Positions 19,740-23,943 of a stretch of DNA of 23,943 nt are shown in pieces. A program made the translations under genes and the position numbers. The notes beneath the pieces are model-generated. The model made no database searches. It was not told the DNA's origin and was given only the letters and a program-made list of their open reading frames with translations. Position 1 is the first letter of the stretch, and every line of letters starts with the position of its first letter. This stretch comes from a virus, in the IMG/VR virus record IMGVR_UViG_3300005077_000747, positions 1-23,943 of that record; one strand, written 5' to 3'.

Positions 19740-20078
19740 TTAAAAAGGTAGCTCCAAAAACTTCTTGAATTTATACAGCTCCTTAATATACTCTACTGCA
19801 TAGTAGGCAGGATTGCATAGTCTCGCAAGAGACATCCACATAGAAAATACAAATCCTACCAGGCAAACCAGAAATAAAGACAGACCGACGTAAAGAAACC
19901 ACGTAGTGTTTGCCTTGTCGGTCGCTTTGATAAAATGTCTGATGAAGTAAACGCCAAGCCCAATACCTATCCCCATTAATAGAGCCACAAACAAAAACAC
20001 GTAGCCATTAATCATAGCCTGACGTTCTAAAACTTCGACTAGAGTGACGTAGGAATACATTAACACACAGATGCGCAA
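19740..20078 (-). CDS. Membrane protein of 112 aa with 2-3 TM helices.
   Basis: Hydrophobic segments are FLFVALLMGIGIGLGVYFI and FLYVGLSLFLVCLVGFVF. It overlaps the queD end by 19 nt. Confidence 0.45.
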   Translation of the reverse strand: MRICVLMYSYVTLVEVLERQAMINGYVFLFVALLMGIGIGLGVYFIRHFIKATDKANTTWFLYVGLSLFLVCLVGFVFSMWMSLARLCNPAYYAVEYIKELYKFKKFLELPF

Positions 20079-20455
20079 TTGTGCTCAGTCTCGTAGACTG
20101 TAACCATCGCAACACCTACTCCTTTATTAGCGAGGAAGTTAAAAATTTTTCGTGCCATGTTTTCGGCAGTTGGGGCTTCATTAAACACCACAACTCGCAC
20201 ATCGAGAGCTTGAAGAACTCCTATAAGAGGATCGGAAGCTTGTAAAATGGTGGCGTGATCCCACTCACTAATAAGCTGGTTTAAAACCTTTTTAAGGTCG
20301 CCAAAATCCATTACAAATCCTTGCTTATCCAGCGATTCACTTCCAATCGATACCTCTACCCTATAACTATGTCCATGCAAGTTGTGGCATGGACCATTAT
20401 AGTCAAGGAGACGATGTGCAGCCTCGAAACTCATCTCTTTAGTAATTGTATACAT
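20060..20455 (-). CDS. queD: QueD, 6-carboxy-5,6,7,8-tetrahydropterin synthase (PTPS family, T-fold).
   Basis: The zinc motif C-x3-HGH is CHNLHGH. The N-terminus is EAAHRL, the size is 131 aa, and the catalytic E/H residues are present. Confidence 0.82.
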   Translation of the reverse strand: MYTITKEMSFEAAHRLLDYNGPCHNLHGHSYRVEVSIGSESLDKQGFVMDFGDLKKVLNQLISEWDHATILQASDPLIGVLQALDVRVVVFNEAPTAENMARKIFNFLANKGVGVAMVTVYETEHNCASVC

Positions 20456-20469
20456 ACAAAACCTCTTCG

Positions 20470-20739: not shown

Positions 20740-20811
20740 TTTTCTAAATCCTTCAACTATAAATTGACATTATTCATTTATTACACACTATTTGAAGCTA
20801 TGAATATATCC

Positions 20812-23238
20812 TTATGCCGCATCTGGTGTAGCATTTGCAATACAGCGTTGCTGAAATTCGTCGAAGGCTTTTTCAAAATCCTGAACTTCAAATGGAATCA
20901 TCTCAGTTTGGTGTAATAGATTGGGACCCACACAAACATCGACGGGTAAAAAGAATCCAGTTTTTTGATCGATCATACGTCTCATAATCTTCCAAATTGC
21001 ATAGGCAGCTGTATAAAGATCTTTAACCGGAACCTCAGCGATGATAGCATCATGAATCTGGAGCACAACATTGCTGCCAGGTAAATTGGCTTCAAACCAT
21101 TCTTGGACTCTCATTAGAGAAAGGTTGGTCCACATCGCTGTAGCGCTTTGAGGACCGAAGTTATAGGCCTCCCTTACACACTTTGCCTTTTCTTGCTCAC
21201 CACCAAAACGGAGATCATATGAAAAGTGGCGCTCAAGTCCAAAGTAATTAACAACCGTACCTGTCTCGAGAACTCTTTCCTTCTCTAACTCCATATATCG
21301 TTTAACCCTTGGGAACGTAGCAAAGAATCTCTCTTCCCTATTAAGGGCCTCCGCTTCAGAACAATTCAGCTGTTTAGCAAGGGTCTGAATTCCAGATCCG
21401 TAAACCTTACCGAAACCCAAGAACTTAACTTCTTGCCTCATCGCCTTAGAAACCTGCTCAACAGGTACCTGATAGAAAAAAGCAGCATTGGATATGTGAA
21501 GATCTAGATAAGGATTGAGCCACTTTTCTTCACCTGCAAGGAACCCAAGCCATCTCAACTCAGCAGCACTAAAGTCACACTTTAGCAATACGTGATCAGG
21601 CTTCGCTGCAAAGAGTTCTAAGATCACAGAGTCTCGGGGTAGTGTTTGTAGTGCGGGGGCTGAAGCTGACAATCGGCCAGTTTTCTTAACATCAAAGTTT
21701 GTATGCACTCGAGCGTGCTTGTCAACATAGGTTTGAATGTTCTTAATGTAGGCGGAATACATCTTCTCGAGGGTTTTTACTTCTCGGACTAGAGAGACGA
21801 TGGGATACTTGTCCTTTAGTTTTTCAAGGAACTCTTTCCTGAAAGAGGGCTTGCCGGTCTTTTTCGATCTCCCTAAAACTGGGATCCCCATTTTTTCGAA
21901 AACCTTGGCTAGCTGATCACTACTACGATGATTGAATTCGACTCCAGCAGTAGCATGTAGTAGATGAGTCTTGTGGGCAATATCTTGTTGGACTGTCCTA
22001 TCAACATCAGACAATCTCGATAAGTCAACAAAGCAGCCCACAATACTAACTGAGGCTAGTCTTCGCAATAAGGGCATCAAGTATTTAAATAGGAGATTGT
22101 CCTTAACTTTATCAAGGAAACGAGGAGCTAATGTATTCCATACGCGGGCAGTATTAACTGCATCACATGCGGCATATGGAAGCCACTCATTAACATCAAC
22201 TGATGCATAGTCCATCGTATACGGACCAATCCCACTAAAAAAACTCCCAAGGGTATCTAAGCTCTTAAGACAATTCTCGTCAAGAAGGGCAAAGGCATAC
22301 ATAGGGTCGACGTAAACATTCGCCCGATATCCAAACCTGAAGAGAAGAATGAAGTCGTAGAGTATATTAAATATGATCGTTTCAAAATCGTATTCCTGAA
22401 ATATGGGTAGCACATCTTCACGAGGAGTTGGATGTGCTCGGCCGTCTAGTAATTCAGGAGGCCCCATTTCAGGTTCATAAAATTTTGAGGGAGTGTGTAT
22501 AACATATCCATGATCAGGCTCAGTTAAGAACGAAAAGCTGACCATAAATAGTTCGGCTACTTGAGGGTTTGTGGTCGTAGCTTCAGTATCAACGACCATC
22601 TTTTGACCTTTATGGCAGTCAAAGATTTCACGGAGCTGTGAAACACTTTTCACCTCAGTATAAGTCCACGCTTTATATCGATCTTCACCCGCTAATACTT
22701 TTTTAGCCAACATCAAATCATTGACTAGTAAAGCAGTAAGTGCAAGACTTTGACGTAGAGCATACGAGGGGTGAATGGAAGGTATAATTTTAGTTCCAGG
22801 TAATTCAGGTACCTCATAGACATGAGAACGCATAAGCATGATTTGAACATCAGGAATATTTAACAGTGCTCGAGTAGGCTCCGCTCCGAGAGGAACAATC
22901 ACTTTAGGCTTTAACTTTTGGAGGGCCTCAATCAAAGGCTCACGCAGGATGTCGACTTCATACTTTGCAAGGCCTCGATCTTTAGCCAATTTAACCGGGC
23001 AGAGATTGCCGACCCATAATTGAGGTCTAGAGATCTTCGCCATCTTAAGGCAACCATCCAAGATTTGACCTGAAGGCCCGACAAATACTTCGCCCTGTTC
23101 AATCTCTGTATCATGGGGTGCGATTCCAACAATCGCCATCCCTGAGAATTCTTCAGTAGGAAGAGAGGGAGGGATAACAGAATTGGGGGTACACTGTACG
23201 AGTAGTTTTTTGATTAAAGCTGCCGCTTCTTCATTCAT
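20812..23238 (-). CDS. Family A DNA polymerase with an N-terminal family-4 UDG-like domain, a 3'-5' exonuclease domain and no 5'-3' exonuclease domain.
   Basis: The UDG4-like region is GIAPHDTEIEQGEVFVGPSGQILD (family consensus GEAPG...G-PFVG-AG-LL) plus IHPSYALRQ (consensus HPS). Exo I is VVDTEAT and Exo III is YAACD. Pol motif A is DFSAAELR, motif B is RQEVKFLGFGKVYG and motif C is QIHDAI. The start is set at the ATG (complement of 23236-23238), which has a GAGGAAG SD. The track start at 23253 is TTG. Confidence 0.88.
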   Translation of the reverse strand: MNEEAAALIKKLLVQCTPNSVIPPSLPTEEFSGMAIVGIAPHDTEIEQGEVFVGPSGQILDGCLKMAKISRPQLWVGNLCPVKLAKDRGLAKYEVDILREPLIEALQKLKPKVIVPLGAEPTRALLNIPDVQIMLMRSHVYEVPELPGTKIIPSIHPSYALRQSLALTALLVNDLMLAKKVLAGEDRYKAWTYTEVKSVSQLREIFDCHKGQKMVVDTEATTTNPQVAELFMVSFSFLTEPDHGYVIHTPSKFYEPEMGPPELLDGRAHPTPREDVLPIFQEYDFETIIFNILYDFILLFRFGYRANVYVDPMYAFALLDENCLKSLDTLGSFFSGIGPYTMDYASVDVNEWLPYAACDAVNTARVWNTLAPRFLDKVKDNLLFKYLMPLLRRLASVSIVGCFVDLSRLSDVDRTVQQDIAHKTHLLHATAGVEFNHRSSDQLAKVFEKMGIPVLGRSKKTGKPSFRKEFLEKLKDKYPIVSLVREVKTLEKMYSAYIKNIQTYVDKHARVHTNFDVKKTGRLSASAPALQTLPRDSVILELFAAKPDHVLLKCDFSAAELRWLGFLAGEEKWLNPYLDLHISNAAFFYQVPVEQVSKAMRQEVKFLGFGKVYGSGIQTLAKQLNCSEAEALNREERFFATFPRVKRYMELEKERVLETGTVVNYFGLERHFSYDLRFGGEQEKAKCVREAYNFGPQSATAMWTNLSLMRVQEWFEANLPGSNVVLQIHDAIIAEVPVKDLYTAAYAIWKIMRRMIDQKTGFFLPVDVCVGPNLLHQTEMIPFEVQDFEKAFDEFQQRCIANATPDAA

Positions 23239-23943
23239 TGGGTTCTTCCTCAAGATATCCTTTAATAATGTTTACCGCTTCTATGAATTTCCCTACATCA
23301 CAGACATCAGATCCAAAGTCAAGTAGCCGCACCATATCACCTGTCGCTGAATATTTAGCGGGCCAAGAGGTGTCGAGTGAATCAAATAGGCTACCATTTC
23401 CTTTGAGTTCAATGGGGTCAGGAAGTCCGAGGAGGTGGATTTTGGTTCGACGAACAAACCTTTTGATTTTATGGAGCAGCTCCATTCTGTCCGGGCACGC
23501 ATGTCTAGGAAGTCCTATAACTTGAAAAGGGAATCCAAAAGAGCGAAGGATGTGAAAACATTTCATACGCTCTCGATTGTCTCTACCCTGAGGCACAATC
23601 ATAAACTTATACTGAGTAAAGAAGCTACCGGGTAAGCTCTGATAAAAATATTTGCCAAGTCTGATTGTCTCCGCAATATTCCCAAGGCAGTCAGGTACAA
23701 CTACAACATCTGGTTTTAACTCACGAATGATTGAAAGATATCGATCGAAGGAGATCGACTTAGATAATTCGAAGGCGGAGTTGTCTAAAAAAATTTCCTT
23801 GCCCTCTTCTTTTTGTCTAAAGATTGCATTACGATAAACGGGATCCCCCCAGAGATGGGCTAGGGCAAAGACATAATCACTATGCTCAAACCCTAACGCA
23901 AGGCTCTCTCTGGGAGTTTCAAATGCGACGAGTGGAATCATTT
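23231..23943 (-). CDS. dpdA: TGT-superfamily transglycosylase, DpdA-like. Its N-terminus may be cut by the window edge.
   Basis: IFLDNSAFEL aligns with the TGT catalytic motif LTDSGGFQ. KIHLLGLPDP aligns with YLMGVGKPDD. The size and the queD/folE2 context fit a DNA 7-deazaguanine transglycosylase. Confidence 0.5.
   Translation of the reverse strand, partial: MIPLVAFETPRESLALGFEHSDYVFALAHLWGDPVYRNAIFRQKEEGKEIFLDNSAFELSKSISFDRYLSIIRELKPDVVVVPDCLGNIAETIRLGKYFYQSLPGSFFTQYKFMIVPQGRDNRERMKCFHILRSFGFPFQVIGLPRHACPDRMELLHKIKRFVRRTKIHLLGLPDPIELKGNGSLFDSLDTSWPAKYSATGDMVRLLDFGSDVCDVGKFIEAVNIIKGYLEEEPNE

Follow-up and report, generated by a model that had tools for sequence, protein, structure and literature searches.

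A probable phage system for replacing guanine with 7-deazaguanine in DNA, with a minimal DpdA3-like transglycosylase gene overlapping a polymerase gene and no detected QueE

Does a phage that displays only part of the 7-deazaguanine pathway replace the guanine of its own DNA? This question is raised by a stretch of 23,943 nucleotides (nt), positions 1 to 23,943 of the virus record IMGVR_UViG_3300005077_000747 in IMG/VR (hereafter the window), whose convincing genes all lie on the minus strand and include those for a protein of the tRNA-guanine transglycosylase (TGT) fold, a family-A DNA polymerase, QueD and a FolE2 fusion. A sequence-only reading of this DNA had placed 7-deazaguanine DNA-modification genes around the polymerase, a claim now supported by homology to DpdA3 as well as by the fold, the conserved residues and the gene context. 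In our view, the window is probably the visible half of a phage system replacing guanine in its own DNA with 7-deazaguanine; as such, it belongs to a known kind, phage 7-deazaguanine DNA modification with a DpdA3-type transglycosylase. Such replacement ranks among the chief means available to phages for shielding their DNA against restriction enzymes and Cas nucleases. Complete replacement is tied to the DpdA3 subfamily, to which the lineage described here adds a DpdA3-like enzyme of very small size, encoded by a gene that overlaps the one for the polymerase.

The central element is a 236-residue protein encoded at 23231-23941 on the minus strand (motif EIFLDNSAFELSK), for which phmmer and tblastn homology, an AlphaFold2 model and conserved residues point to a minimal DpdA3-type TGT-fold DNA transglycosylase candidate. 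Its start lies 2 nt from the window edge; since an identical 236-residue protein is on record (P0001), the open reading frame is nonetheless full length. By phmmer, the protein is related to the DpdA3 enzymes of the phages immuto (E-value 2.8e-17) and CP220 (E 8.8e-11). By tblastn, an immuto protein annotated as 'DNA guanine transglycosylase' shares 30% identity with it (E 3e-15), and the matches are confined to phages with deazaguanine genes, namely the Flavobacterium phage immuto, the Campylobacter CP220 group and the Bacillus BSP7 group.

Regarding the fold, structure prediction, which the sequence-only reading had suggested as a check, yielded a model with a predicted local distance difference test score (pLDDT) of 92.1 and a (beta/alpha)8 barrel of the TGT type. 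The best Foldseek match in the PDB is the bacterial DpdA 7UI4, with an archaeosine TGT and a bacterial TGT also among the leading matches, and identity in the structural alignments to bacterial DpdA and TGTs is 12-16%. In BFVD, the phiST protein M4SLA5 (259 residues) ranks second for this model, with a TM-score of 0.79 and an E-value of 1.6e-14.

Across 19 sequences of the family, D53 (in LDNSAFEL), D84 (PD), Q118-G119 (VPQG), G172 (LLG) and D190 (LDTS) are invariant, and they are collinear with D89, D143, Q187, the LMGVG motif and D264 of E. coli Tgt, the equivalence of D53 and D89 being based on motif order alone. In the reference enzymes, the nucleophile is D264 (E. coli) or D280 (Z. mobilis) and the other aspartate comes from the DSGGFQ motif. 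The sequence-only reading had recognized a TGT-fold protein with the DSGGFQ-like motif DNSAFEL; the model sustains the fold, and D53, which lies in this motif, is a putative active-site aspartate. The zinc site CxCxxC...H is not present in the 236-residue protein, in which C128 is the sole invariant cysteine, and the DpdA3 sequences of immuto and CP220 are likewise without it. E. coli Tgt has 375 residues, so that the window protein, devoid of a zinc subdomain, is ~140 residues shorter. Compared with the bacterial DpdA (the preQ0 insertase 7UI4) and the TGTs together, it is ~140-180 residues shorter and lacks tRNA-binding and DpdB-partner features as well as the zinc site.

The resemblance to the known DpdA3 phages extends from the enzyme, equally short there (~230-265 residues) and carrying the same LDNSxFEL, VPD, VQG, LLG and LDTS motifs, to its setting among replication and nucleotide-metabolism genes in a genome with QueD and a GTP cyclohydrolase. 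Judged on its sequence, the TGT-fold protein is DpdA3-like; however, its identity to DpdA3 is only about 28-30% and it shows some affinity to DUF6610, the DpdA4 family, so it may form a sister clade of DpdA3 and not a member of the named clade. DUF6610 is matched by 13 of the 19 family members and is the only Pfam match of the window protein (19.3 bits, for a cutoff of 27). The Pfam TGT family (PF01702) is not matched by the window protein; five of the 19 members match it (best E 1.8e-5), and a precomputed PF01702 match exists for P0006, which is 64% identical to the window protein.

The stop codon (TGA) of this gene overlaps the start codon of the polymerase gene (ATG at 23238) by 8 nt, which corrects the earlier description of a gene ending 5 nt before the polymerase gene; because they overlap, the two genes are probably translationally coupled. 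The polymerase (20812-23238, minus strand) combines, according to Pfam, a DNA_pol_A domain (224.9 bits), a 3'-5' exonuclease domain (20.8 bits) and an N-terminal domain of the uracil-DNA glycosylase (UDG) superfamily at residues 39-170 (PF03167, 63.4 bits). Its pairing with the DpdA-like gene is kept in all relatives, and the UDG-PolA fusion hints at a link with modified DNA. The same fusion was also seen in an unrelated low-GC viral contig (L049), together with DpdA3, FolE2 and QueD.

As the sequence-only reading had noted, queD and a gene for a CxxCGxCC protein follow the polymerase gene on the minus strand. QueD, the 6-carboxy-5,6,7,8-tetrahydropterin synthase (PTPS-I), is encoded at 20060-20455 and scores 118.8 bits on PF01242 (PTPS) and 102.9 bits on the equivalog TIGR03367, above its cutoff of 89.25. 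The motif GPCHNLHGH reads as C-HNL-HGH and belongs to the CxxxHGH class, which denotes QueD/PTPS-I, as opposed to ExxHGH for PTPS-III and CExxHGH for I/III hybrids (PMC5041015). By these sequence measures, the gene product is an orthodox QueD. A PTPS-III or folate bypass was rejected on the histidine, in place of glutamate, that follows the motif cysteine, and an identity as DpdL on the absence of the DpdL motif LxxxHRHxF. The option of a different pterin product, which had been kept in play, is hence disfavored by the QueD-type motif.

Between the polymerase gene and queD lies the gene (20470-20739, minus strand) of an 89-residue, cysteine-rich protein of the YkgJ/UPF0153 type, assigned on its motifs and on a PF03692 match below cutoff. 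Its eight cysteines comprise those of CKRCGRCC (CxxCxxCC) together with C40, C53, C65 and C80, and the YkgJ motifs are present, including the downstream C...GxC.I[YF]..RP..C..[HY]P region. On PF03692 it scores 17.5 bits for a cutoff of 23, its orthologues 14-24.3 bits and E. coli YkgJ 44.6 bits; this is the sole family with E < 0.1 for the protein and each orthologue. DUF3109, the family of DpdM, gave no match at E <= 1 with either the small or the large YkgJ-like paralogues, and tblastn found no BLAST-level relative of the 89-residue protein in phage genome records. With an orthologue-based hidden Markov model (HMM), the small gene was found always just upstream of queD, in every relative whose PolA-QueD interval was read, and a larger YkgJ-like paralogue stands upstream of dnaB in every relative with that region read.

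YkgJ-type proteins have a precedent in such systems: the dPreQ1 methyltransferase DpdM, validated in phiSM and VH7D, belongs to the YkgJ homologues (family DUF3109) and has two predicted four-cysteine metal sites (PMC10516641). The claim that the YkgJ protein is no standard member of dpd clusters has therefore to be corrected; the present protein itself falls with PF03692, the family of E. coli YkgJ, and not with DUF3109. Like DpdM, it is a cysteine-rich YkgJ-type protein in a phage deazaguanine cluster, with eight cysteines that possibly form two four-cysteine sites. In contrast to DpdM, whose reported cysteines run to C150 (phiSM) and C222 (VH7D), it has 89 residues; by the Pfam test the two differ in family, and no QueF or other preQ1 source is seen here. 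Downstream, queD shares a TAATG junction, and hence translational coupling, with the gene of a small membrane protein (19740-20060, minus strand; 106 residues from the ATG at 20060), for which hydropathy predicts two transmembrane helices. This protein matches phrog_1486, 'membrane protein' (E 1.3e-6), and is kept after queD in relatives. The YkgJ-like and membrane proteins may be accessory factors or further base modifiers.

More than eight contigs of uncultured phages share this arrangement in synteny, with DpdA identities of 51-74%. Their common order begins with the large YkgJ-like gene, dnaB, a PurN-like formyltransferase gene (in some), the primase, the DpdA3-like enzyme, UDG-PolA, the small YkgJ-like protein, QueD and the membrane protein; it continues with a PD-(D/E)XK nuclease, a ThyA-like enzyme, a phosphoribosyltransferase (PRTase) resembling orotate phosphoribosyltransferase (OPRT), a variable cluster of glycosyl-, methyl- and sulfotransferases, sbcDC and the LAGLIDADG::FolE2 fusion. 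More distant homologues of the TGT-fold protein are encoded beside QueC (L043) or four genes from it (P0018). One relative was binned in a 'Brevinema andersonii' metagenome-assembled genome, which is weak evidence as to the host.

The formyltransferase gene, located between dnaB and the primase gene and two genes from the DpdA3-like gene, was observed in two relatives (L001, 7628-8221; L004, 7772-8365), and a formyltransferase near dpdA is found likewise in immuto. The two proteins score 137-142 bits on TIGR00639, just below the cutoff of 150, and the immuto DpdN 55 bits; being far more PurN-like, they were rejected as clear DpdN proteins.

The first enzyme of the pathway is encoded ~13 kb downstream of the cluster, after sbcD and sbcC, as a fusion of a LAGLIDADG-like domain to FolE2, the GTP cyclohydrolase IB (5122-6519, minus strand). 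Pfam and PDB matches confirm the FolE2 fusion that the sequence-only reading had reported here. The FolE2 domain (residues 205-456) scores 209.3 bits on PF02649 for a cutoff of 25, in a match that spans positions 2-260 of the 260-position profile, and the solved FolE2 structures 8G6C, 2R5R and 3D2O match with E-values of 1e-50 to 1e-55; on NF010200, the score of 208.3 bits is narrowly below the cutoff of 215. The N-terminal ~190-195 residues (5950-6519) form a degenerate LAGLIDADG-like domain (LAGLIDADG_2, 21.7 bits, E 2e-4; intron endonuclease 6X1J, E 0.0096). Translation probably begins with the ATG at 6474, since the database protein P0020 has 450 residues. The fusion is kept in 11 proteins with 45-100% identity, and as all 11 retain the LAGLIDADG-like part, it is a fixed domain and not a recent insertion.

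FolE2 also occurs beyond this lineage. A single FolE2 sequence as query retrieved no viral contig, but an alignment query did. Unfused FolE2 genes stand in unrelated viral contigs in QueD-QueE-QueC-FolE2 or QueD-QueE-FolE2 rows, and a low-GC phage group has the order UDG-PolA ... DpdA3 ... FolE2 ... QueD and neither QueE nor QueC within 10 kb. FolE2 thus belongs to phage deazaguanine clusters as a regular though undescribed member; it goes unmentioned in the two main surveys of these systems. The lineage shows that FolE2 can take the place of FolE in phage clusters.

No QueC, QueE or QueF was found in the window by phmmer with E. coli and phage seeds or by six-frame motif scans, in agreement with the sequence-only reading as regards QueC and QueE. 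We therefore turn to the relatives, two of which were tiled: IMGVR_UViG_3300036980_000377 (62,771 bp, of which 3498-62103 or 93% was read) and the Logan contig SRR5823612_56633 (51,797 bp, of which 1-47658 or 92% was read). Both encode a canonical QueC (PF06508, 219 bits; TIGR00364, 215 and 189 bits for a cutoff of 150.3). In four relatives, the two tiled contigs and relatives of 116 and 175 kb, queC precedes a recA-like gene and the terminase gene by a few genes. The left edge of the window corresponds to an SPFH-like gene common to both tiled contigs, and QueC is encoded 6-11 kb beyond the equivalent of this edge, so that the QueC of the source phage probably lies outside the window.

From these elements a pathway can be proposed. 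FolE2 would convert GTP into dihydroneopterin triphosphate, from which QueD would produce 6-carboxytetrahydropterin (CPH4). CPH4 would become 7-carboxy-7-deazaguanine (CDG) by the action of a QueE that is not phage-encoded, a host enzyme being its likeliest source, and preQ0 would be made by the canonical QueC that relatives encode beyond the left edge, by recA and terminase. After replication, the DpdA3-type enzyme would swap guanine in duplex phage DNA for the deazaguanine base by a transglycosylation of the usual type, in which an aspartate (here the candidate D190) serves as nucleophile and D53 and D84 are the remaining putative active-site aspartates. DNA is presumed to be the substrate of this enzyme, and the phages CP220, phiST and immuto, which carry DpdA3, replace their guanine completely (Cui et al., 2023; PMC10516641). 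The inserted base is most likely preQ0, because no QueF, Gat-QueC, ArcS or DpdL signature was seen, the search for QueF extending over the lineage. FolE, QueD and DpdA had been given earlier as the requirements for preQ0 in phage DNA; this set is insufficient, as QueE and QueC are needed too.

Compared with canonical folE/folE2-queD-queE-queC operons, FolE2 and QueD are orthodox and the QueC of the relatives passes the equivalog cutoff; in contrast, the genes are spread across more than 30 kb (queD near the polymerase gene, folE2 after sbcCD, queC of the relatives before recA) and the radical S-adenosylmethionine (SAM) step is missing. Compared with the DpdA3 phages, a FolE2 fused to a LAGLIDADG-like domain stands in place of FolE, neither QueF nor DpdL is present, and the YkgJ-like paralogues, the queD-coupled membrane protein and the dpdA/UDG-PolA overlap are added. 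The novel features are the minimal enzyme gene overlapping UDG-PolA, the LAGLIDADG::FolE2 in place of FolE, the scattered que genes, the conserved YkgJ-like and membrane partners and the apparent lineage-wide absence of QueE.

Several points weigh against the proposal that this phage modifies its DNA in the manner of the DpdA3 phages. The TGT-fold protein of the window reaches no Pfam cutoff and has no NCBIfam match, and a search of PDB sequences with the family profile (HMMER) found no TGT. hhalign does set D190 on D264 of E. coli Tgt, but with a statistically non-significant E-value of 0.11; the global alignment fails and is stable only as a local alignment of the C-terminal motif. Moreover, Cui et al. 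(2023; PMC10516641) state that activity of a DpdA3 has yet to be demonstrated, be it in vitro or in E. coli, and that its substrate is unknown. The source contig is absent among the best 120 homologues of a relative's QueC, in which other contigs of the lineage do appear.

A further point regards QueE, which was found in no relative with two seed sequences and a six-sequence HMM applied to the window and the lineage loci, whereas immuto, phiST and CP220 all have it. Of the missing steps, which had been suggested to lie outside the window, QueC was recovered in the four relatives and QueE in none, including the contigs read to 92-93%. The 62.8-kb relative has no open reading frame of at least 135 residues with CxxxCxxC. 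Radical-SAM genes of some relatives were rejected as QueE, being of the MoaA/PqqE-like or SPASM types only and located inside variable glycan clusters; the window is free of them. In the two tiled contigs, the unread ends carry structural genes, and neither contig attains the length of the longest members (88-90 kb); a QueE elsewhere in the lineage genomes is unlikely. The lineage thus displays a conserved pathway with one step missing, and the proposed pathway therefore depends on the host. Supply of QueE by the host is the simplest explanation, and incomplete phage pathways complemented by the host are documented (PMC6884629). In this case, the phage would depend on one host enzyme and be tied to queuosine-making hosts.

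A different explanation of the same gap is that a non-homologous phage enzyme performs the QueE step, or that CPH4 is channeled to another deazapurine, with the YkgJ-type proteins and perhaps the membrane protein as candidates. The lineage would then make a DNA deazaguanine without a radical-SAM QueE, and CDG or an undescribed base would be inserted by the DpdA3-like enzyme. We consider this unlikely, albeit the best placed of the alternatives. QueE is missing lineage-wide while FolE2, QueD, QueC and the DpdA3-like enzyme are retained, the small and large YkgJ-like genes are present in every relative with the relevant interval read, and eight cysteines could accommodate two sites for metals or Fe-S clusters. 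In the YkgJ homologue DpdM, a CxxxCxxC motif was discussed as Fe4S4/SAM-like by those who described the protein. However, 89 residues are too few for the SAM-binding core of a radical-SAM enzyme, and DpdM is a methyltransferase and not a ring-contracting enzyme. FliB, another YkgJ relative, is likewise a methyltransferase. The YkgJ-like genes are also absent from the QueE-less group with DpdA3, FolE2 and QueD (L049, L059), and host supply is simpler and has a precedent (PMC6884629). If true, an alternative route to the 7-deazapurine ring would exist; if the host proves devoid of QueE, the conserved genes beside queD become candidates for new deazapurine chemistry, and interest would rise sharply should a complete genome confirm the QueE gap in a phage whose host has no queE.

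That the phage does not modify its DNA at all appears less likely still. FolE2 and QueD would here boost the supply of queuosine-tRNA or pterin in the host, and the TGT-fold protein would be a tRNA-directed enzyme or serve in another glycosylase-type role. The DNA substrate is indeed inferred only, the TGT superfamily is largely tRNA-directed and the window protein remains below every curated family cutoff. Yet its nearest relatives are the DpdA3 enzymes of phages with fully modified DNA, it has no tRNA-binding or zinc subdomain (236 residues, as against 375 in E. coli Tgt), and its gene overlaps that of the replicative polymerase and follows dnaB and primase in all relatives.

Assuming that guanine is replaced in the DNA, as we favor, the base could in principle enter as a nucleotide. 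In this scheme, to which we give a lower probability again, the OPRT-like PRTase encoded at 16606-17232 on the minus strand (PF00156, 34.7 bits; TIGR00336 pyrE, 82.3 bits, below its cutoff of 106.8) would make a deazaguanine nucleotide, as ToyH does for toyocamycin; once reduced and phosphorylated, this nucleotide would be incorporated by the polymerase. The PRTase is kept in the vicinity of the cluster, a PRTase is also found inside the que cluster of immuto, and a 7-amido-7-deazaguanine (ADG) nucleoside has been reported in CP220-infected cells (PMC10516641). Against this, the conserved presence of a DpdA-type enzyme favors insertion after replication (Cui et al., 2023; PMC10516641). Furthermore, the window PRTase is most OPRT-like, that is of the pyrimidine type, is paired with the ThyA-like gene, has no detectable similarity to the immuto PRTase and is absent from the PolA-FolE2 stretch read in the 116-kb relatives. 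Least probable of all is that the ThyA-like enzyme receives a pterin- or folate-type cofactor made by FolE2 and the PTPS homologue, a scheme recommended by the presence of this ThyA-family enzyme within the same transcription unit region and by the ability of PTPS-III to replace FolB in folate synthesis (PMC5041015), but contradicted by the CxxxHGH motif and the score above the QueD equivalog cutoff, by the failure to see FolK, FolP or FolC, and by the QueC of the relatives.

The ThyA-family enzyme itself (17359-18243, minus strand; PF00303, 31.5 bits; TIGR03283, 63.5 bits) keeps the catalytic cysteine (SPC) and the RSWD...N motif with the dUMP-type asparagine. The ThyA-like/PRTase pair is kept in most relatives, and in a 116-kb relative (L072) the ThyA-like gene is one gene from QueC. 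Judging from these similarities, the pair may represent a second, pyrimidine-directed DNA modification or nucleotide salvage.

Other genes of the window were recorded alongside. A glycan-type cluster at 11345-16592 (minus strand) encodes a Methyltransf_24 protein, a GT2 glycosyltransferase, a CmcI-like O-methyltransferase, a Methyltransf_11/23 protein, a GT1 glycosyltransferase, a sulfotransferase and one protein without assignment. Its content differs between relatives, some of which add radical-SAM/SPASM genes, and its target may be DNA, proteins of the virion or the surface of the host. A papain-family (C1) cysteine peptidase, kept in several relatives, is encoded at 10175-11029 (minus strand), and three small proteins encoded at 3656-4918 (minus strand) begin with hydrophobic or lipoprotein-like leaders. 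Homing elements appear common in the lineage: the primase upstream of the DpdA3-like gene in one relative (L005, 7686-9572) contains an intein with a LAGLIDADG endonuclease, and the terminase of the Logan relative has an intein-splicing match.

At the left edge, the SPFH/Band-7-like gene (2-406, minus strand) has an in-frame TAA at 131-133; the pieces on either side (134-406 and 2-130) both match the same 400-430-residue protein of relatives, so a pseudogene, a sequencing error or read-through could be involved. Finally, a Ro60/TROVE protein with a vWA domain is encoded at 1442-2911 (minus strand). Just upstream of its gene, on the same strand, two regions (3185-3250 and 3338-3445) match the Y RNA-like family YrlA (RF02553) below threshold, with 41.8 bits (E 9.6e-8) and 28.6 bits for a gathering score of 69, and a tRNA-Met gene (1341-1412, minus strand) lies just downstream. 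This ensemble looks like a phage-borne Ro-Y RNA module, and TROVE homologues occur in many unrelated viral contigs.

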